Positions 8,508 through 40,994 of a stretch of DNA of 41,044 bases are shown here, in pieces. The first letter of the stretch is position 1. Each line of letters begins with the position of its first letter. The translations under genes were made by a program, and so were the position numbers. The stretch comes from a virus, in UHGV virus genome UHGV-0106252; one strand, 5' to 3'. The notes beneath the pieces are model-generated. The model had not been told where the DNA came from. It was given only the letters and a program-made list of their open reading frames with translations, and did not search any database.

Positions 8508-8669
8508 ATGACAAAACGTCGTAAGAAATACCAGGAAAAAGAAGAGATTCGACACCCTGATTCACCTGAGGGATTAGTGGTAGCCGCAGCAAATAACAGG
8601 GCGTTCGCAGAGCGCCTTGTTGGTGTTTACAGACTAGCCAAAGCAGGAGTGAAACATGGGCGTCGTTAA
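8508..8669 (+). CDS. Small basic protein (hypothetical)
   Basis: 53-aa ORF MTKRRKKYQEKEEIRHP... with AGGAGT SD. Not in the ORF track. Confidence 0.3.
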   Translation: MTKRRKKYQEKEEIRHPDSPEGLVVAAANNRAFAERLVGVYRLAKAGVKHGRR

Positions 8670-8718
8670 GTTAGCTGATTACAGGCATAACCCTGTACAA
8701 CATCAGGAGGCATCCAGT

Positions 8719-9546
8719 ATGGGGTATGTCTCTATACACCGCCAGTTTATGGACAGCAGGCTCTATAAGGACTCTCAGGCAGTACATCTTTGGCTTCACT
8801 TAATCCTCAAGGCTAATCACGAATCTACTGTCGTCAATACGGATATCGGTCCGATAACTGTTGATCGCGGTCAGATGATAACTGGACGCCCGTCGCTGGT
8901 CAGAGAAACATTCATCCCCGACAACAAAGTTCGGAGCTTATTACGGACTTTTGAGTCGAAAGGGATGCTTAATATTTGCTCGATGGGGAAGAAATTTAGC
9001 CTGTTTACAATCGTTAAATATGACGATTTTCAGGCAAAAAATTGTCCAACGGTTGTCCAACGGTTGTCCAACGCAAACACCAGTAATGGCGCGGCTCTCA
9101 GCGGAGATTGTCCAACGGTTGTCCAACGGTTGTCCATAAACAATAATATAAATAATATCTCTAATACTGACGTATTAGAGAGTGCCACAGCAGACAAAAA
9201 GTCTGACAAGAAAAAACCTTCCGTTAGCTGTCAGGATGTTGTCGATGCTTACCACGAAATCCTTCCTGAAGCGCCAAGAATCCGCGCACTGAATGACAAG
9301 CGTAAAAACCAGATCCGAACGTTCTGGCGCAAAGCCGGAGTGATAACCCGCCAGCTTGACGGGCATGGGTTCACGATGCAGGACTGGAGAAATTATTTGA
9401 GCTACGTAGGCGAAAATTGCCGATGGATGTTCGAAGAACGCCCAAACCATCAACGCGGAACCGTCTGGCACAAAAAGGGATTTGATTTCCTGCTTAACGA
9501 TAATACCTACCTGAAAGTTCGTGAGGGTGAACACGATGACCGATAA
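8719..9546 (+). CDS. Replication initiator (P22 gene-18 / lambda O type)
   Basis: Contains the iteron array inside the coding sequence (repeated CPTVVQRLS peptide). CAGGAGG SD before the ATG at 8719; an upstream ATG at 8656 is also possible. Confidence 0.7.
   Translation: MGYVSIHRQFMDSRLYKDSQAVHLWLHLILKANHESTVVNTDIGPITVDRGQMITGRPSLVRETFIPDNKVRSLLRTFESKGMLNICSMGKKFSLFTIVKYDDFQAKNCPTVVQRLSNANTSNGAALSGDCPTVVQRLSINNNINNISNTDVLESATADKKSDKKKPSVSCQDVVDAYHEILPEAPRIRALNDKRKNQIRTFWRKAGVITRQLDGHGFTMQDWRNYLSYVGENCRWMFEERPNHQRGTVWHKKGFDFLLNDNTYLKVREGEHDDR
9042..9170. repeat. Replication origin: 11-bp iterons plus AT-rich tract
   Basis: TTGTCCAACGG at 9042, 9053, 9064 (last base variant), 9108, 9119 and a partial copy at 9130; then AT-rich 9139-9170. 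Confidence 0.75.
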
Positions 9547-10972
9547 TTTTTATGCGCCGCCCCATAGCATCGAGGCTGAGCAGGCGGTGATTGGTGGATT
9601 GCTTCTGGATGATGACAGCAGTGAGCGCGTCCAGAAAGTTCTGGCGATGCTGAAGCCCGATTCATTTTACAGCCGACCACACAAAATCCTTTTCGAAGAA
9701 ATAACCAGAATGCACCGGGAGCAAAAGCCAGTAGATGGGCTGACGCTTTTCGATGAACTGGAGCGCAAATCGTTAACGGCGTCTGTTGGCGGTTTTGCTT
9801 ATATCGCTGAGATCGCAAAGAACACGCCAAGCGCAGCAAACATCGTTGCCTATGCAATGCAGGTTCGTGAAACCGCAATGGAACGCTACGCCATCAACCG
9901 CATGACTGAAGCGACGGAATTGCTCTATTCCCGCAACGGAATGACTGCAACGCAGAAGTACGAAGCTATTCAGGCGATTTTCACGCAACTGACAGACCAT
10001 GCAAAAACCGGATCGCGTCGCGGCCTTCGCTCATTTGGTGAGGTCATGGAAGACTGGGTTAGCGACCTTGAGAAGCGATTTGACCCGTCAGGCGAACAAC
10101 GAGTAATGAGCACAGGGATCCCATCGCTGGACAGGATGCTGTCACCGAAAGGCCTGGTGAAAGGCTCTCTGTTTGTCATTGGCGCTCGCCCTAAGATGGG
10201 GAAAACGACGCTATACAGCCAGATGGCAATCAACTGCGCAGTGCATGAGAAAAAGCCAGCTCTGATGTTCAGCCTTGAAATGCCAGGTGACCAGATACTG
10301 GAAAAACTGGTAGGGCAGAAGTCTGGTGTTAACCCGAATATTTTTTACCTTCCGGCGACAAATGACGCCGATGACGGCTATCAGGGTGATTACGATGGTG
10401 ACTTCAACAGGGCGATCGAAACAGCCAATCGCTTGAGTGAAATCGACCTGCTTTACATCGACGACACGCCGGGATTATCTCTGGCTCAAATCGTCAGCGA
10501 AAGCCGTCGAATCAAGCGAGAAAAAGGATGTGTTGGCATGATTCTGGTCGATTACCTGACACTAATGACCGCTGAGAAGGCCGATCGCAACGACCTTGCT
10601 TACGGCATGATCACCAAAGGACTGAAGAACCTTGCCAAAGAGCTTGATTGCGTTGTTGTGCTTCTGACGCAGCTTAACCGCGCACTGGAAAGCAGAACCA
10701 ATAAACGCCCATTACCAAGTGACTCACGAGATACAGGGCAGATTGAACAGGATTGCGATTATTGGGTCGGGATCCATCGTGAAGGCGCTTTTGATGACAG
10801 TGTTCCACCTGGTGAAACTGAACTAATCCTTCGTCTCAATCGTCATGGCAATACCGGCACGGTGTACTGCATTCAGGCAAATGGCGCTATTTATGACACA
10901 GACCAACAGTCTGCTGAAATGCGCCGCCGTGAACGCGAGGAACCGCAGTCCAAGAAGAAAGGAGGATTCTGA
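9536..10972 (+). CDS. Replicative DNA helicase (DnaB family, P22 gene-12 type)
   Basis: Walker A GARPKMGKT, DnaB-like N-terminal domain. ATG at 9536 overlaps the end of the initiator gene. Confidence 0.9.
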   Translation: MTDNFYAPPHSIEAEQAVIGGLLLDDDSSERVQKVLAMLKPDSFYSRPHKILFEEITRMHREQKPVDGLTLFDELERKSLTASVGGFAYIAEIAKNTPSAANIVAYAMQVRETAMERYAINRMTEATELLYSRNGMTATQKYEAIQAIFTQLTDHAKTGSRRGLRSFGEVMEDWVSDLEKRFDPSGEQRVMSTGIPSLDRMLSPKGLVKGSLFVIGARPKMGKTTLYSQMAINCAVHEKKPALMFSLEMPGDQILEKLVGQKSGVNPNIFYLPATNDADDGYQGDYDGDFNRAIETANRLSEIDLLYIDDTPGLSLAQIVSESRRIKREKGCVGMILVDYLTLMTAEKADRNDLAYGMITKGLKNLAKELDCVVVLLTQLNRALESRTNKRPLPSDSRDTGQIEQDCDYWVGIHREGAFDDSVPPGETELILRLNRHGNTGTVYCIQANGAIYDTDQQSAEMRRREREEPQSKKKGGF

Positions 10973-11241
10973 TGAATAAAAAACAATTAGCCATTCTCGA
11001 AAAGGCATGGGATGCACAAATATCATGCGCTTTGAAAGAACAGGCACTACCAATAATCCAGACCAAATCGAAAATAGCCAGGCAGTTATGCGATGACGGA
11101 TTCCTGAACGAAGTTGAGATTACGCGCCAGATGGTAACGTTCAAAGGGTATGAGATAAATCATCATGGTATAGCGGCGTATTGCTCCCATCTTCCTGATG
11201 ACGTTGACATTGATGAAATGGAAAGGGAGATGAAGCAATGA
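10972..11241 (+). CDS. Hypothetical nin-region protein
   Basis: 89-aa ORF, start/stop coupled to the helicase. Confidence 0.5.
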   Translation: MNKKQLAILEKAWDAQISCALKEQALPIIQTKSKIARQLCDDGFLNEVEITRQMVTFKGYEINHHGIAAYCSHLPDDVDIDEMEREMKQ

Positions 11242-11330
11242 CCATCTACATCACTGAGCTAATAACAGGCCTGCTGGTAATCGCAGGCCTTTTTATTTGG
11301 GGGAGGGTAATTGGAGGCTTTAAGAAATGA
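11238..11330 (+). CDS. Possible 30-aa hydrophobic peptide
   Basis: MTIYITELITGLLVIAGLFIWGRVIGGFKK; ATGA overlaps on both sides. Not in the ORF track. Confidence 0.25.
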   Translation: MTIYITELITGLLVIAGLFIWGRVIGGFKK

Positions 11331-11542
11331 GTACGATAGTTGAGCTTGTCCGCGCCGACTTTCAGGAGAACATTGGTCGTGCAAAGCGGTACTGGTCTGC
11401 TTCCAGACTTCCGACTGGCGAGAGACAGAAAAACGCCCCTAAGCCACGTAGCTATCCGCGTGACCGCGTTCTTCGCCGGTTGGTTAAAATCGATACTGAT
11501 TTTCAGTGTGACAGAATTATCCGGAACCTGGATTTAAAGTGA
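11327..11542 (+). CDS. Hypothetical nin-region protein
   Basis: 71-aa ORF, ATGA-coupled. The overlapping 11340-11537 ORF is rejected. Confidence 0.4.
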   Translation: MSTIVELVRADFQENIGRAKRYWSASRLPTGERQKNAPKPRSYPRDRVLRRLVKIDTDFQCDRIIRNLDLK

Positions 11543-11552
11543 AGGAGTGAGC

Positions 11553-11759
11553 ATGACAAATCAGCAGCAAATAGAGTTCATCCTTGAGCAGATTCGAAAA
11601 ATGCGAGAAAAGAACCAGCCAGACATGATGGAACTATGGAGACGCCAGCAGGAAGAATACCGCAAGCATATTTTTGGTGAGAGAAAACAGGATGGCTGGA
11701 GCCTATATGGCTATGGCACCAGGCCAAATAAAAATGGATACAGCCTTTACGCATACTGA
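11553..11759 (+). CDS. Hypothetical nin-region protein
   Basis: 68-aa ORF; GAAGGAG SD 5 nt before the ATG. Confidence 0.45.
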   Translation: MTNQQQIEFILEQIRKMREKNQPDMMELWRRQQEEYRKHIFGERKQDGWSLYGYGTRPNKNGYSLYAY

Positions 11760-11767
11760 GGAATTCC

Positions 11768-12178
11768 ATGAAACAGACAATTTTCCTCAGGAGTAAGCAA
11801 CAACAGCAAGCCGCAATCAACGCCATCCTCGCAACACCACTCGATAAAGACAAGCCAGTCACCATCCGCATTACTGACTACAAGCGCAACCTTGACCAGA
11901 ACGCAAAATTTCACGCGATGCTGGCGGATATCGCTCGTCAGGTTCAATGGTGCGGCAAATGGTTAAAACCAGAACAATGGAAGATTTTGTTGATTAGCGG
12001 TCATGCAGTGGCGACAAAGCAGGAAGCTGATGCTTTGCCCGGGCTTGAAGGCGAATACGTCAACATTCGCGAAAGCAGCGCACAGATGAGCGTGAAGCGC
12101 ATGGCAAGCCTGATTGAGTACACGACAGCATGGGCTATTGGTCAGGGTGTCAGATTTACCGACAGGAGGTACGAATGA
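11768..12178 (+). CDS. ninB: NinB (Orf-family recombination mediator)
   Basis: 136 aa; [22 protein letters not shown] parallels lambda NinB. Confidence 0.8.
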
Positions 12179-12351
12179 GACGACAGCGACGAAGTTTCAC
12201 CGACATCATCTGCGAAAACTGCAAATACCTTCCAACCAAACGCTCCAGAAATAAACCCAAGCCAATCCCAAAAGAATCTGATGTGAAAACATTCAATTAC
12301 ACTGCTCACCTGTGGGATATCCGGTGGCTAAGACATCGTGCGAGGAAATGA
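12175..12351 (+). CDS. ninE: NinE
   Basis: [52 protein letters not shown] is close to lambda NinE. AGGAGG SD; ATGA overlap with ninB. Confidence 0.8.
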
Positions 12352-12353
12352 CA

Positions 12354-12704
12354 ATGGATTATTCACAGTTAAGTGATTTTGAAATTAACAAGCGAGTATT
12401 TAAAGCGATAGTTGGGGCAAAACCATTAGGTTATCCGCACAACGCAGATGGACGGTCTGTTGGCAATGAAGCAAATGGTAATTATCGATGGTACGACTAC
12501 TGCAATAACCCAGCAGACGCATGGCCGATTATCACTGAAAACAACATCAGCATAATTTTAAACAATCCCTCAATGCCGTGCGCCACAGACAACGCAAGGG
12601 ACTTGTTTGATGATGCCGGACCGAATGTTGGTGTCGCATATGACAATCCACTCCGTGCCGCCATGATTGTCTTTCTCATGATGCAGGACGCCAATAATGC
12701 TTAG
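12354..12704 (+). CDS. NinX-like protein
   Basis: About 117-aa ORF in ninX position; start could alternatively be the ATG at 12348. Confidence 0.5.
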   Translation: MDYSQLSDFEINKRVFKAIVGAKPLGYPHNADGRSVGNEANGNYRWYDYCNNPADAWPIITENNISIILNNPSMPCATDNARDLFDDAGPNVGVAYDNPLRAAMIVFLMMQDANNA

Positions 12705-12873
12705 CCCATCCCAATCCCTTCAATACCAGAAAGAAAGCGTCGAGCGAGCTTTAACGTGCGCTAACTGCGGTCAGAAGCTGCATGTGCTGGAAGTTCACAT
12801 GTGTGAGCACTGCTGTGCAGAACTGATGAGCGATCCGAATAGCTCAATGTACGAGGAAGAAGACGATGAGTGA
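12697..12873 (+). CDS. ninF: NinF
   Basis: MLSPSQSLQYQKESVERALTCANCGQKLHVLEVHMCEHCCAELMSDPNSS is close to lambda NinF. Not in the ORF track (58 aa). Confidence 0.8.
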   Translation: MLSPSQSLQYQKESVERALTCANCGQKLHVLEVHMCEHCCAELMSDPNSSMYEEEDDE

Positions 12874-13589
12874 GTTAATAAATGGCAATGCCATCAAAAT
12901 GACAAGCATTGAAATCGCTGAGTTGGTGGGAAGTCGTCATGACAAGGTGAAACAATCTATTGAACGACTGGCGGCTCGAGGTGTGATCCGAAATCCCCCA
13001 ATGGTGGTTTTCGAAAAAAATCAATAACTTAGGATTACTTCGTGGCGTAGAGGCTTACGTTTTTGAGGGCGAACAAGGTAAGCGAGACAGCATTATTGTC
13101 GTCGCTCAGTTGTCGCCGGAATTCACCGCTCGTCTTGTTGACCGTTGGCGAGAGCTTGAAGAAACTGCGGTTAATATCCCAAAAACGCTACCAGAAGCGT
13201 TGCGCCTTGCTGCTGATCTTGCTGAGCAGAAAATGCAACTGGAAAACCAGCTCGCAATTGCCGCACCTAAAGTTGAGTTTGCCGATCGCGTTGGCGAGGC
13301 CAGCGGAATTTTGATTGGAAACTTTGCAAAGGTTGTTGGTATTGGTCCAAACAAACTGTTTGCGTGGATGCGCGATCACAAAATCCTTATTGCTTCAGGT
13401 TCCCGGCGCAATGTGCCAATGCAGGAATATATGGATCGCGGCTATTTCACAGTGAAAGAAACAGCGGTCAACACAAATCACGGAATACAGATATCGTTCA
13501 CTACAAAAATCACCGGACGTGGCCAACAGTGGCTGACCAGAAAGCTGCTCGATAACGGAATGCTGAAAGTAACAGGAGAGGCTGCTTAA
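12866..13589 (+). pseudogene. Rha/KilAC-type antirepressor-like gene interrupted by a +1 frameshift in an A7 run
   Basis: Rha-like N-terminal part ends at a stop at 13025-13027; the KilAC-like remainder continues in another frame. Removing one A from the run 13014-13020 fuses them. Confidence 0.6.
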
Positions 13590-13879
13590 TGGTTAACCTA
13601 CGCAAAGAAGCGCGCGGCAGAGAATGCCAGGTACGTATTTACGGCGTATGCAATGGTAATCCTGAAACTACAGTTCTGGCACATTACCGGATGGCTGGAA
13701 TTTGCGGAACTGGAATGAAGCCTGACGACCTGATCGGCGCATGGGCTTGTAGCGCGTGTCACGATGAAATCGACCGACGCACAATGATTCTCGACAACAA
13801 AGACGCCAGACTTTACCACCTCGAAGGCGTGATCAGGACGCAGGCGATACTGCTGAAGGAGGGGAAGATTAAGCCATGA
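13589..13879 (+). CDS. DUF1364 (YbcO-like) protein
   Basis: 96 aa; ...IYGVCNGNPETTVLAHY...AWACSACHDEIDRR Cys/His motif typical of YbcO-like nin-region proteins. Confidence 0.55.
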   Translation: MVNLRKEARGRECQVRIYGVCNGNPETTVLAHYRMAGICGTGMKPDDLIGAWACSACHDEIDRRTMILDNKDARLYHLEGVIRTQAILLKEGKIKP

Positions 13880-13893
13880 ACTAATATCAGTTT

Positions 13894-14238
13894 GTGCTTC
13901 CATACCCGCCGTCGGTGAACACCTACTGGCGAAGACGGGGAAGCCAATACTACATCAGCGATAAAGGCGAGAAATACCGAAAAGACGTTCAGCAAATCAT
14001 CCGCCAACTCAAGTTAGACATTTTCACCAAATCACGACTCCGCATCAAAGTCATCGCAGACGTTCCAGACTCCCGCCGCCGCGACCTCGATAACATCCTG
14101 AAGGGTTTACTCGACTCCCTTATCCACGCCGGATTTGCGGAAGACGACGAGCAATTCGATGACATTCGCGTAATTCGTGGTGTGAAAGTACCAGGCGGAA
14201 GGCTTGGAATAAAAATCACCGAACTGGAGAACGTATGA
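13894..14238 (+). CDS. rusA: RusA Holliday-junction resolvase
   Basis: LPYPPSVNTYWRRRG...DLDNILKGLLDSL are RusA signature motifs. GTG start. Confidence 0.85.
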   Translation: MLPYPPSVNTYWRRRGSQYYISDKGEKYRKDVQQIIRQLKLDIFTKSRLRIKVIADVPDSRRRDLDNILKGLLDSLIHAGFAEDDEQFDDIRVIRGVKVPGGRLGIKITELENV

Positions 14239-14423
14239 ACGCCACAATTCAAACGATACCAGAGCTTCTTATCCAGACACGAGGCAATCAGACCGAAGTG
14301 GCGAGGATGCTTTCCTGCGCAAGAGGAACAGTGCTCAAGTACAACCGAGACAGCAAAGGCGAGCGTCACGTAATAGTTAACGGCGTCCTGATGGTCAAAC
14401 AGGGCAAGAAGGGAAGACGATGA
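14235..14423 (+). CDS. ninH: NinH
   Basis: ...GNQTEVARMLSCARGTVLKY... matches the lambda NinH HTH core. Confidence 0.75.
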   Translation: MNATIQTIPELLIQTRGNQTEVARMLSCARGTVLKYNRDSKGERHVIVNGVLMVKQGKKGRR

Positions 14424-15043
14424 GACTCGAAAGCGTAGCTAAATTTCATTCGCCAAAAAGCCCGATGATGAGCGACTCACCACGGACTACGGCTTCTGAC
14501 TCTCTTTCCGGTACTGATGTGATGGCTGCTATGGGGATGGCGCAATCACAAGCCGGATTCGGAATGGCTGCATTCTGCGGTAAGCATGAACTCAGCCAGA
14601 ACGACAAACAAAAGGCTATCAACTATCTGATGCAATTTGCACACAAGGTATCGGGGAAATACCGTGGCGTGGCAAAGCTTGAAGGAAATACTAAGGCAAA
14701 GGTACTGCAAGTGCTCGCAACATTCGCTTATGCGGATTATTGCCGTAGTGCCGCGACGCCGAGCGCAAGATGCAGAGATTGCCACGGAACAGGTCGGGCA
14801 GTTGATATAGCAAAAACAGAGCAGTGGGGGAGAGTTGTTGAGAAAGAGTGCGGAAGATGTAAAGGCGTCGGTTATTCAAGGATGCCAGCAAGCGCCGCAT
14901 ATCGCGCTGTAACGATGCTAATCCCAAACCTTACCCAACCCACCTGGTCACGCACTGTTAAGCCGCTGTATGACGCTCTGGTGGTGCAATGCCACAAAGA
15001 AGAGTCAATCGCAGACAACATTTTGAATGCGGTCACACGTTAG
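14420..15043 (+). CDS. Q: Late-gene antiterminator Q (lambda type)
   Basis: 207 aa, near-identical to lambda Q as I recall it, including the zinc-binding Cys cluster. Confidence 0.95.
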   Translation: MRLESVAKFHSPKSPMMSDSPRTTASDSLSGTDVMAAMGMAQSQAGFGMAAFCGKHELSQNDKQKAINYLMQFAHKVSGKYRGVAKLEGNTKAKVLQVLATFAYADYCRSAATPSARCRDCHGTGRAVDIAKTEQWGRVVEKECGRCKGVGYSRMPASAAYRAVTMLIPNLTQPTWSRTVKPLYDALVVQCHKEESIADNILNAVTR

Positions 15044-15085: not shown

Positions 15086-15113
15086 TTGACTTTTTGAATA
15101 AACTTGGGTAAAT
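15086..15113 (+). promoter_or_regulatory. Late promoter pR' (with qut region downstream)
   Basis: TTGACT (15086-15091) and TAAATT (15108-15113), in sequence context almost identical to lambda pR'. Confidence 0.8.
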
Positions 15114-15254
15114 TTGACCCAACGATGGGTTAATTCGCTCGTTGTGGTAGTGAGATAAAAAGAGGCGGCGCTTACTACCGATTCCGCCTAGTTGGTCACT
15201 TCGACGTATCGTCTGGAACTCCAACCATCGCAGGCTGAGAGGTCTGCAAAATGC

Positions 15255-34050: not shown

Positions 34051-34953
34051 ATGAATAGTATAGCAATTTTAGAAGCAGTGAACACCTCTTACGTACCTTT
34101 CAATGGTCAGCAGATTATCACCGCCATGACTGCCGGAGTTGCATATGTTGCGATGAAGCCAATCGTTAAAAACCTTGGAATGAGCTGGTCAACGCAGCAA
34201 ACAAAACTCATGAAGCAGATTAGCAAATTCAACTGTGTTCATATGAACATGGTTGCCGCTGATGGTAAGCTTCGTAGGCTACTCTGCCTTCCTTTGAAGA
34301 AGTTAAATGGATGGCTGTTCAGCATCAACCCTGAGAAAGTTCGTGCTGACATCCGCGATAAACTGATTCAGTACCAGGAAGAATGCTTTACTGTGCTGCA
34401 TGACTACTGGACGAAGGGAAAGGCAGAAAATGCACGTAAGAAAACATCTGTTGATGACAGGACTCCGCTTCGTGATGCTGTAAATATGCTAGTCAGCAAA
34501 AAGCATCTAATGTACCCAGAAGCTTATGCAATGATTCATCAGCGTTTCAACGTGGAAAGTATTGAAGAGCTTGATTCATCTCAGATACCGCAAGCAGTAG
34601 AGTACATCCACAGGGTAGTGCTTGAAGGCGAGTTCATCGGCAAACAAGAGAAGAAAACCAACGAGCTTTCTGCAAAAGAAGCAAACAGCCTTGTATGGCT
34701 ATGGGATTATGCCAACCGCTCACAGGCATTATTCCGCGAACTGTATCCGGCATTAAAACAAATTCAATCGAACTATTCCGGCAGATGCTACGACTACGGT
34801 CATGAATTCTCGTATGTTATCGGAATGGCGAGAGACGTTTTAATAAACCACACACGAGATGTTGATATTAATGAGCCAGACGGACCAACGAATCTTTCCG
34901 CATGGATGAGACTTAAGAATAAAGAATTACCTCCTTCAGTACATAACTACTGA
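34051..34953 (+). CDS. ant: Antirepressor Ant
   Basis: 300 aa, [26 protein letters not shown]... close to P22 Ant. Confidence 0.9.
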
Positions 34954-39836: not shown

Positions 39837-40994
39837 TTACAGCACACTTTCATCAAGCCAGTCCGCCCACCACTGCATCATTTCTCTGCGCTTATCGAGA
39901 TACTGAGCATGGTTGTAAATACCGCGCACAGATCCTCCGTTGGCATGTGCCAGTTGCACTTCAATAGCGTCAGCAGGCCATTCGTGCTCGTTCATAATCG
40001 TGCTGAATTCATGCCTGAATCCGTGACCGCTTTCCAGACCTTCATAGCCGATTTGTTTGATCACAAGTAGTACCGCGTTCTCGCAGATTGGCTTCTTCTT
40101 ATCGTTGCGTCCGGCAAAAACAAACTCTGATACTGGTTTAGTGATTGAGCTTAGCGTAGTGAGAAGTTCAACCACCTGGTCTGACATAGGAACAACATGA
40201 ATCTTGCGGCCCTTCATCACACTGGCGTCGATAGTGATAATCCTGTTTTCAAAATCGACGTTCTTCCATTGCATGGAACGAAGCTCTTTTGTTCTGAGGG
40301 CTGTGTAGCGTAAAACTTTGGTCGCAATGAGCGATACGATACTTCCTGAAAATGTTGCCAGTGCTTTGTTGAATGCCGGGATCTGGTCTGCAGGAAGAAA
40401 CGGGAAGTTCTTCTTGCGGTATCCCTTCATGGCGTCAGCAAGGTCAGGTGCCGGGTTATATTTAGCCCTTCCGGTGACAATAGCGTAACGGAAAACCTCG
40501 CCGCATCTTCTGCGTGCTTTGTTGGCTCGCTCCATTGCACCGCGATCTTCAAACCTGCGGATTACTTCCAGCAGTTGCATAGGCTCAATATCCTGAATTT
40601 CAAGGCCGCCGATGATAGGTAAAATGTCGTCATCAAACATTTTTGCAAGTTCAGTTGCATAGCCTACTGACCAGACTTGCTTCTTGTGCTCGTACCATTC
40701 CTTGTAAATCGCACTAAAGGAATTGTTGTTAGACGAAGCCTTTTTCGCTTTTACCGGATCGATGCCAACCGAGATGTCTTTCCTCGCAGTCCATGCTTTA
40801 TCCCTTGCCTCCTGCAAAGTCATAAGCGGATATTTTCCTACGGTCAGGATTTTCTCCTTACCGTCAATCTTGTAGCGAAGCTGCCATACCTTTTTCCCTG
40901 ACACAGGGACATAAAGGTACAGGCCATTACCATCGAGTAGGCGGTATGGTTTTTCTTTCGGCTTTGCTGCTTCAATCTGCTTAACGGTGAGCAT
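39837..40994 (-). CDS. int: Tyrosine integrase (P4/IntS family)
   Basis: N-terminal DUF4102-type arm-binding domain; C-terminal catalytic domain with R...HGFRH...Y. ATG at 40994 gives 385 aa; the ORF track extends to a GTG at 41030. Confidence 0.9.
   Translation of the reverse strand: MLTVKQIEAAKPKEKPYRLLDGNGLYLYVPVSGKKVWQLRYKIDGKEKILTVGKYPLMTLQEARDKAWTARKDISVGIDPVKAKKASSNNNSFSAIYKEWYEHKKQVWSVGYATELAKMFDDDILPIIGGLEIQDIEPMQLLEVIRRFEDRGAMERANKARRRCGEVFRYAIVTGRAKYNPAPDLADAMKGYRKKNFPFLPADQIPAFNKALATFSGSIVSLIATKVLRYTALRTKELRSMQWKNVDFENRIITIDASVMKGRKIHVVPMSDQVVELLTTLSSITKPVSEFVFAGRNDKKKPICENAVLLVIKQIGYEGLESGHGFRHEFSTIMNEHEWPADAIEVQLAHANGGSVRGIYNHAQYLDKRREMMQWWADWLDESVL

Follow-up and report, generated by a model that had tools for sequence, protein, structure and literature searches.

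A hydrophobic 30-codon open reading frame in the nin region of a lambdoid phage genome corresponds to ninA and carries the tR2 terminator at its centre

In the nin region of the virus genome UHGV-0106252, a stretch of 41,044 nucleotides that we refer to as the window, a hydrophobic open reading frame (ORF) of only 30 codons sits in a chain of overlapping genes, and the question it raises is whether this frame encodes a membrane peptide or is the trace of something else. The initial annotation had described it as unannotated and as a possible membrane peptide. The ORF is present at 11238-11330, is strongly hydrophobic and is bracketed, as had been claimed, by two ATGA overlaps (11238-11241 and 11327-11330). 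From its matches we identify it as ninA, a real and conserved gene and not a new one, and from its identity with lambda we assign its central codons, 10-21, to the lambda tR2 intrinsic terminator. The two elements are as follows.

11238-11330, + strand: ninA, 30 codons, MTIYITELITGLLVIAGLFIWGRVIGGFKK (phrog_5907), with an ATGA overlap at both ends.
11267-11298, + strand: tR2 intrinsic terminator, with stem AGGCCTGC / GCAGGCCT, loop TGGTAATC and U-tract TTTTTATTT.

The predicted peptide matches phrog_5907 over residues 1-26 (E=5.2e-17), and tblastn found the ORF in 421 phage records, with 93-100% identity to ORFs annotated as ninA or NinA; such annotations are carried by Stx phage 24B, the PhiR12 phages, HK620 and P22. 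The description of the ORF as unannotated therefore holds for the RefSeq PGAP annotation of E. coli genomes and for the lambda RefSeq record, but not for the curated records, where it is ninA. The peptide has no Pfam family, and phrog_5907 has no known function. Its hydrophobic span, from I3 to W21, is of membrane-spanning length, and its best 18-residue segment has a Kyte-Doolittle mean of 2.19, a value reached by 1.8% of the 165 ORFs of 24-45 amino acids (aa) in the window. The interlinked nin genes, ninA and tR2 are all already known, tR2 being a standard model terminator.

Reading this ORF as a candidate membrane peptide overlooks tR2, because the hydrophobic stretch consists mostly of codons 10-21 (12 of the 30), and these are at the same time a hairpin and its U-tract. 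The stem (11267-11290) has 8 bp, six of them G-C pairs, closes a loop of 8 nt and is followed by TTTTTATTT; the site is listed first among the plus-strand terminator-like sites in a 9-kb scan, and the hairpin appears in both the minimum free energy and the centroid folds. Hairpin and U-tract are identical to lambda 40596-40627, and the conserved block from the ninA ATG to the G-run past the U-tract (11238-11306) differs from lambda at 1 base. The map position is also that of lambda tR2, between the replication genes and the nin genes, and at the homologous spot inside ninA a terminator is marked in the records of both P22 and HK620. Published work has tR2 lying 30 bp downstream of the NinA AUG and uses, for the lambda element, a maximal termination efficiency (TE0) of 0.9 (PMC4824070). 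Read in the ninA frame, the stem and T-run spell G-L-L-V-I-A-G-L-F-I-W, and the other two frames hold stops. The transmembrane-like look of NinA is thus due mainly to codons drawn from a G+C-rich stem and a T-run; nothing here demonstrates a membrane function, and a functional NinA membrane peptide is unproven.

Which of the two overlapping elements is constrained can be asked of their relatives, and loci were gathered via the two neighbouring genes, a degenerate DNA pattern and annotated records. Among the 228 loci with the 5' end of ninA, 221 keep the hairpin and U-tract in place. In the remaining seven, ninA is interrupted at about codon 10 by an HNH_3/AP2 homing-endonuclease gene, and in six of these the canonical hairpin lies ~690 nt downstream, right after the endonuclease stop, the seventh being too short to tell. 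The small ORF, whose conservation in relatives had been proposed as a check on it, is intact at 24-40 aa in 213 of the 228 loci. The 15 broken copies comprise six truncations to 13 aa that arise from a 1-nt deletion in the loop, one copy of 20 aa with a premature stop, one in-frame fusion to an 86-aa ORF (locus L184) and the seven split by insertion. The hairpin is retained in every broken-ORF locus whose sequence extends to it.

Where the stem has changed, it has done so by C->T substitutions compatible with G·U pairing; the single exception is a C->A change that leaves a stem of 6 bp. Two unrelated stems, GGGGCTAT/GTAGCCC and GGGGCCAC/GTGGCC, each followed by a T-run, also occupy the tR2 position, and we read these alternative stems as compensatory evidence for selection on the terminator. 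Because the hairpin is kept where the ORF is broken, because stems vary in a G·U-compatible way and because alternative stems stand in the same place, the terminator appears to be the constrained element of the pair. The C terminus of NinA behaves differently from locus to locus: after residue 23 it varies by mosaic junction (VIGGFKK, VNRG, GKS, GKT, GK, GKCG, GNWRL, RKHG), and DNA homology ends just past the U-tract and G-run, at that junction.

Some further observations on the surveyed loci stand apart from this argument. The loop deletion changes TGGTAATC to TGTAATC in six loci, three of which share one source genome, and the alternative terminator alleles were seen in nine loci and, in addition, in L184. 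The inserted endonuclease gene is AT-rich and encodes 203 aa (1849-2460 in locus L064, one of the seven), and the highly conserved ninA/tR2 block seems to act as a homing site. When genome contigs were scanned for the 5' part of ninA the hits were mostly due to chance, with real ones only in Escherichia and Shimwellia and no deeply diverged copies among them. Exact lambda ren-ninA-ninB sequence also occurs in assemblies of unrelated bacteria (Oceanobacillus, Bradyrhizobium, Pseudoxanthomonas, Nocardioides), in at least 13 of the surveyed loci; many of these lambda-bearing contigs show ~1x coverage in their names, and lambda sequence in unrelated public assemblies is probably contamination.

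A terminator under constraint leaves the question of whether the frame across it is used by ribosomes, and Shine-Dalgarno and ATGA statistics together with a published reporter indicate that ninA is probably translated. Seven non-homologous upstream gene ends, including an 89-aa gene (the one in the window), ren and two types of helicase, all join ninA via ATGA. In six of the seven, GGAG, GAGG or AGGA stands 6-8 nt before the AUG, compared with a background of 8.5% of operon positions (binomial P=2.4e-6). In the window the Shine-Dalgarno sequence GGGAG (11225-11229) lies in the 3' end of the 89-aa gene, placing GGAG 8 nt before the ninA ATG. That unrelated upstream genes all supply a Shine-Dalgarno sequence and ATGA gives modest support to the suggestion that NinA initiation is under selection, and the starts of several different downstream genes fall on the ninA stop or straddle it. 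The substitution ratio was calculated from the neighbour-ascertained loci only; those found by the degenerate pattern were left out, since this pattern permits only synonymous variation in codons 1-11. Codons 2-10, which lie 5' of the hairpin, carry 7 synonymous as against 6 non-synonymous changes. The per-site ratio from these small counts is 0.30 (P=0.03), compared with 0.35 and 0.53 in the genes flanking ninA; in codons 10-21 any signal at the protein level is confounded by the terminator. In the reporter work, mutating the NinA ribosome-binding site or AUG restored reporter expression, and the NinA site was described as one that 'is not weak'; tR2 was only ~10% less efficient when NinA was translated, since 30 nt are too few for the ribosome to catch up with the polymerase (PMC4824070).

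We consider it probable that ninA serves as a translated bridge across tR2 and that its hydrophobic product is likely a by-product, both parts of this reading being inferred. N-dependent read-through of tR2 is established lambda biology. RNA polymerase unmodified by an N-type antiterminator would stop in the U-tract, within ninA codons 19-21, and polymerase modified by N would continue through to the nin genes and Q. A ribosome that has translated the upstream gene and terminates at the TGA of ATGA would restart on the ninA AUG, helped by the Shine-Dalgarno sequence in the last codons of that gene; on read-through transcripts it would cross and melt the hairpin and would then stop at a TGA overlapped by the start codon of the following gene. 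In this way ninA would keep the coupled chain continuous over the terminator, and the NinA peptide would probably have no function of its own. Several points weigh against this bridge. The downstream gene has its own Shine-Dalgarno sequence (GGAGG) and so may not need coupling, and two junctions further down the chain have gaps of 8-10 nt. The homologues are at least ~92% identical in DNA and are confined to phages of Escherichia, Salmonella and Shimwellia, and their conservation partly reflects recent shared ancestry or exchange of a mosaic module, the substitution counts being small. Finally, an allele with the alternative hairpin also encodes a hydrophobic stretch (GAIYTVALFYWI) and the NinA tail usually has basic residues, both of which fit a real membrane peptide.

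These last two points lead to the view that NinA is a genuine inner-membrane protein that spans the membrane once and acts in its own right, for example in exclusion or by modulating a host membrane protein, with the terminator simply embedded in its coding sequence. The basic residues follow the core in most of the tail variants, the core itself is more hydrophobic than nearly all small ORFs of the window, the ORF survives in the great majority of loci, Shine-Dalgarno motifs precede it in 6-7 unrelated upstream contexts and variation in codons 2-10 leans synonymous. We nevertheless regard such a protein as unlikely, as the hairpin and U-tract coincide exactly with codons 10-21, and of the three frames across them only this one is open and gives G, L, A, F and I codons. 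The tail is unconserved and even frameshifted (VIGGFKK as against GNWRL), 15 of the loci lost the peptide and kept the hairpin, neither Pfam nor PHROG offers a function, the nin region has been described as nonessential (PMC8022706), and no report of a NinA function or membrane localisation was found in the literature searched. At the other extreme the ORF could be a by-product of the terminator with no meaningful translation: a 30-codon frame over a conserved 70-nt block would be cheaply kept by descent alone, neither PGAP nor the lambda RefSeq record calls it, and it has been lost without loss of the hairpin. This is very unlikely in the face of well-spaced Shine-Dalgarno motifs in six of the seven unrelated contexts, of an A placed before TGA in all seven, creating the ATG, of downstream genes that repeatedly begin on the ninA stop, and of a NinA initiation site that was active in the reporter (PMC4824070).

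Least probable of all is that ninA works as a leader of the pyrBI type, where a ribosome close behind the polymerase would block the tR2 hairpin and coupling would set read-through independently of N. A short ORF running through an intrinsic terminator does match the anatomy of the pyrBI attenuator, and the distance from the upstream stop to the hairpin, 25 nt, is close to the interference limit of 27 nt measured for tR2; yet when NinA translation is silenced tR2 efficiency changes by only ~10% (PMC4824070), and no U-rich pause site was seen between the AUG and the hairpin. A sub-threshold Rfam match to Trp_leader (E=0.56), the sole hit, might seem to point the same way but scores 21.5 bits against a gathering score of 41, and we rejected it as chance. 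An attenuator with alternative pairings was likewise rejected, as the 121-nt region folds into the hairpin only and has no structure beyond it (z=-0.56). Two more novel readings may be put forward, which we hold to be improbable: in the first, ninA translation routes terminated pR transcripts to rescue by transfer-messenger RNA (tmRNA), and in the second the 26-30-aa NinA is itself a functional, membrane-active product. A pR transcript terminated at tR2 would be a non-stop mRNA because tR2 lies in a translated ORF, and in a reporter upstream expression was halved via the non-stop/tmRNA route (PMC4824070). If the first reading were true, terminated messages for O and helicase would go to tmRNA rescue and decay, a conserved N-dependent switch on replication-gene expression. 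A brief look at the literature on tmRNA and on lambda-immP22 gave no link to ninA.

The surrounding genes were identified from Pfam and PHROG matches. The ORF map and database matches show a P22/HK620-like lambdoid phage or prophage, and we place the stretch from helicase to Q in the nin segment of the early-right (pR) operon. The closest nucleotide matches are HK620, HK633, Kapi1 and their relatives, at ~95% identity over ~70% of the region, which we read as the usual mosaic pattern. Apart from ninA and tR2, the features of the operon are the following.

8656-9546, + strand: O-like initiator, which heads the early-right operon.
9536-10972, + strand: DnaB-like replicative helicase (phrog_19, E=8e-136), the homologue of HK620 gene P.
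10972-11241, + strand: 89-aa gene (phrog_2239, E=3e-63, a PHROG without assigned function).
11327-11542, + strand: DUF7301 gene (PF23975, E=4e-24), with its Shine-Dalgarno sequence GGAGG (11314-11318) inside the ninA tail.
11553-11759, + strand: 68-aa gene (phrog_18758, E=3e-43 over residues 1-68), overlapping neither neighbour.
11768-12178, + strand: NinB (PF05772, E=6e-55).
12175-12351, + strand: NinE (PF05322, E=3e-43), ATGA junction.
12348-12704, + strand: NinX (PF10765, E=2e-16), ATGA junction.
12697-12873, + strand: NinF (PF05810, E=1e-10), both junctions being 8-nt overlaps.
12866-13589, + strand: roi/antirepressor gene, frameshifted (+1), with a sub-threshold N-terminal Phage_pRha match and a C-terminal KilAC/ANT domain.
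13589-13879, + strand: predicted YbcO-like (HNH) nuclease (PF07102, E=3e-44), TAATG junction.
13876-14238, + strand: rusA (PF05866, E=1e-16), ATGA start, codon 3 TAA.
14235-14423, + strand: NinH (PF06322, E=3e-24), ATGA on both sides.
14420-15043, + strand: Q antiterminator (PF03589, E=6e-58), the end of the chain.

All 14 junctions from helicase to Q were read directly from the sequence, and 11 of them overlap: seven are ATGA, two are overlaps of 8 nt and two of 1 nt. The chain originates at the helicase TGA stop (10970-10972), which has 1 nt in common with the next ATG (TGATG, 10970-10974), and the other 1-nt overlap joins roi to the YbcO-like nuclease (TAATG, 13587). The ATGA junctions stand at 11238 (89-aa gene/ninA), 11327 (ninA/DUF7301), 12175 (NinB/NinE), 12348 (NinE/NinX), 13876 (YbcO/rusA), 14235 (rusA/NinH) and 14420 (NinH/Q), and the 8-nt overlaps are those of NinX with NinF and of NinF with roi. 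Gaps of 10 nt and 8 nt separate the 68-aa gene from DUF7301 and from NinB, respectively, and the third junction that does not overlap is the frameshift inside roi. The count of at least eight ATGA or short-overlap junctions in the initial annotation was accordingly correct, and their being successive is true approximately but not strictly, the longest unbroken runs being four and four, or eight were roi intact. Translational coupling along the chain, which had been read from these overlaps, is a reasonable and accepted interpretation, and most of the overlapping starts are also preceded by a Shine-Dalgarno sequence.

Overlapping genes are frequent everywhere in this compact phage genome. In the late operon about 3 of ~14 junctions are ATGA, by our count on a rough greedy ORF list, so that the enrichment in the nin region is modest; it is typical of nin regions. 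The nin genes of lambdoid phages have been described as 'exceptionally tightly packed', with many ATGA motifs, in all lambdoids (PMC8022706), and the lambda ninR as a 'chain of interlinked genes' (Kroger & Hobom 1982, Gene 20:25, as cited in PMC4824070 and restated in PMC8022706). Such packing has thus been on record since 1982, and later genome papers describe it again. The only gene of the chain with a gap on both sides is the 68-aa phrog_18758 gene, which has no Pfam match and occupies the slot where Stx phages have a Lar restriction-alleviation gene. Two minus-strand ORFs (13598-13903 and 13989-14369) are antisense to Pfam-identified genes and were treated as shadows. Just 3' of Q, at 15086-15114, there is a promoter-like TTGACT-17 nt-TAAATT, at the position given to the late promoter pR' in the HK620 and P22 records.

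Two nin genes of the window are damaged. Compared with the intact roi of HK620, one extra base in an A7 run (13013-13019) splits the gene into ORFs of 53 and 159 aa, and the Phage_pRha match of the N-terminal piece reaches 23.1 bits against a cut-off of 29.9. The split could be a real frameshift in a prophage undergoing decay, an error in sequencing the homopolymer or a site of transcriptional slippage. In rusA, a G->T change at 13882 makes codon 3 TAA (13882-13884) where HK620 has GAA; the other 114 codons are intact, and a restart at the GTG at 13894 is possible. Together, the rusA stop and the roi frameshift suggest a prophage gathering mutations in dispensable nin genes.

As a discovery the locus has little weight, and its practical value lies in the comparative evidence and in a caution for annotation. 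A hydrophobic mini-ORF may be the protein-frame shadow of an intrinsic terminator, and calls of a 'small membrane peptide' should therefore be checked against RNA elements. The survey also raises the small question of why a translated ORF should lie across a terminator.

Comparison with known systems places the locus more precisely. NinA resembles the small enterobacterial membrane proteins MgrB and TimP in its size, below 50 aa, and in its one predicted segment of transmembrane length, but unlike these its hydrophobic residues appear to be dictated by an RNA element, and its tail is unconserved. With the leader of the pyrBI attenuator (Roland et al., as described in PMC4824070) it shares a short ORF through a terminator hairpin, whose folding a ribosome could block; unlike pyrBI, the window ninA has no visible U-rich pause site at which ribosome and polymerase could be brought into step, and translating NinA has only the small measured effect on tR2 given above (PMC4824070).

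The closest likeness is to lambda and its relatives. Like the interlinked lambda ninR chain, the window joins its nin genes by ATGA and short overlaps from the replication genes to Q. Its content is mosaic, with NinX, roi, the YbcO-like nuclease and RusA in place of the lambda NinC, NinD, NinG and NinI, and unlike the lambda chain it has two short gaps and two genes with inactivating mutations. At tR2-ninA itself (lambda 40567-40647; P22 ninA 34673-34753) the ATGA start is the same in all three, and in lambda the ninA frame has ren before it and NinB after it, each joined to it by ATGA. The upstream neighbour is the 89-aa phrog_2239 gene in the window, as in Stx phage 24B, whereas it is ren in lambda and the helicase in P22 and HK620; at the other end, the 30 codons of the window ninA (..RVIGGFKK) end on the DUF7301 start, whereas the 26 codons of the lambda and P22 genes end on the ninB start.

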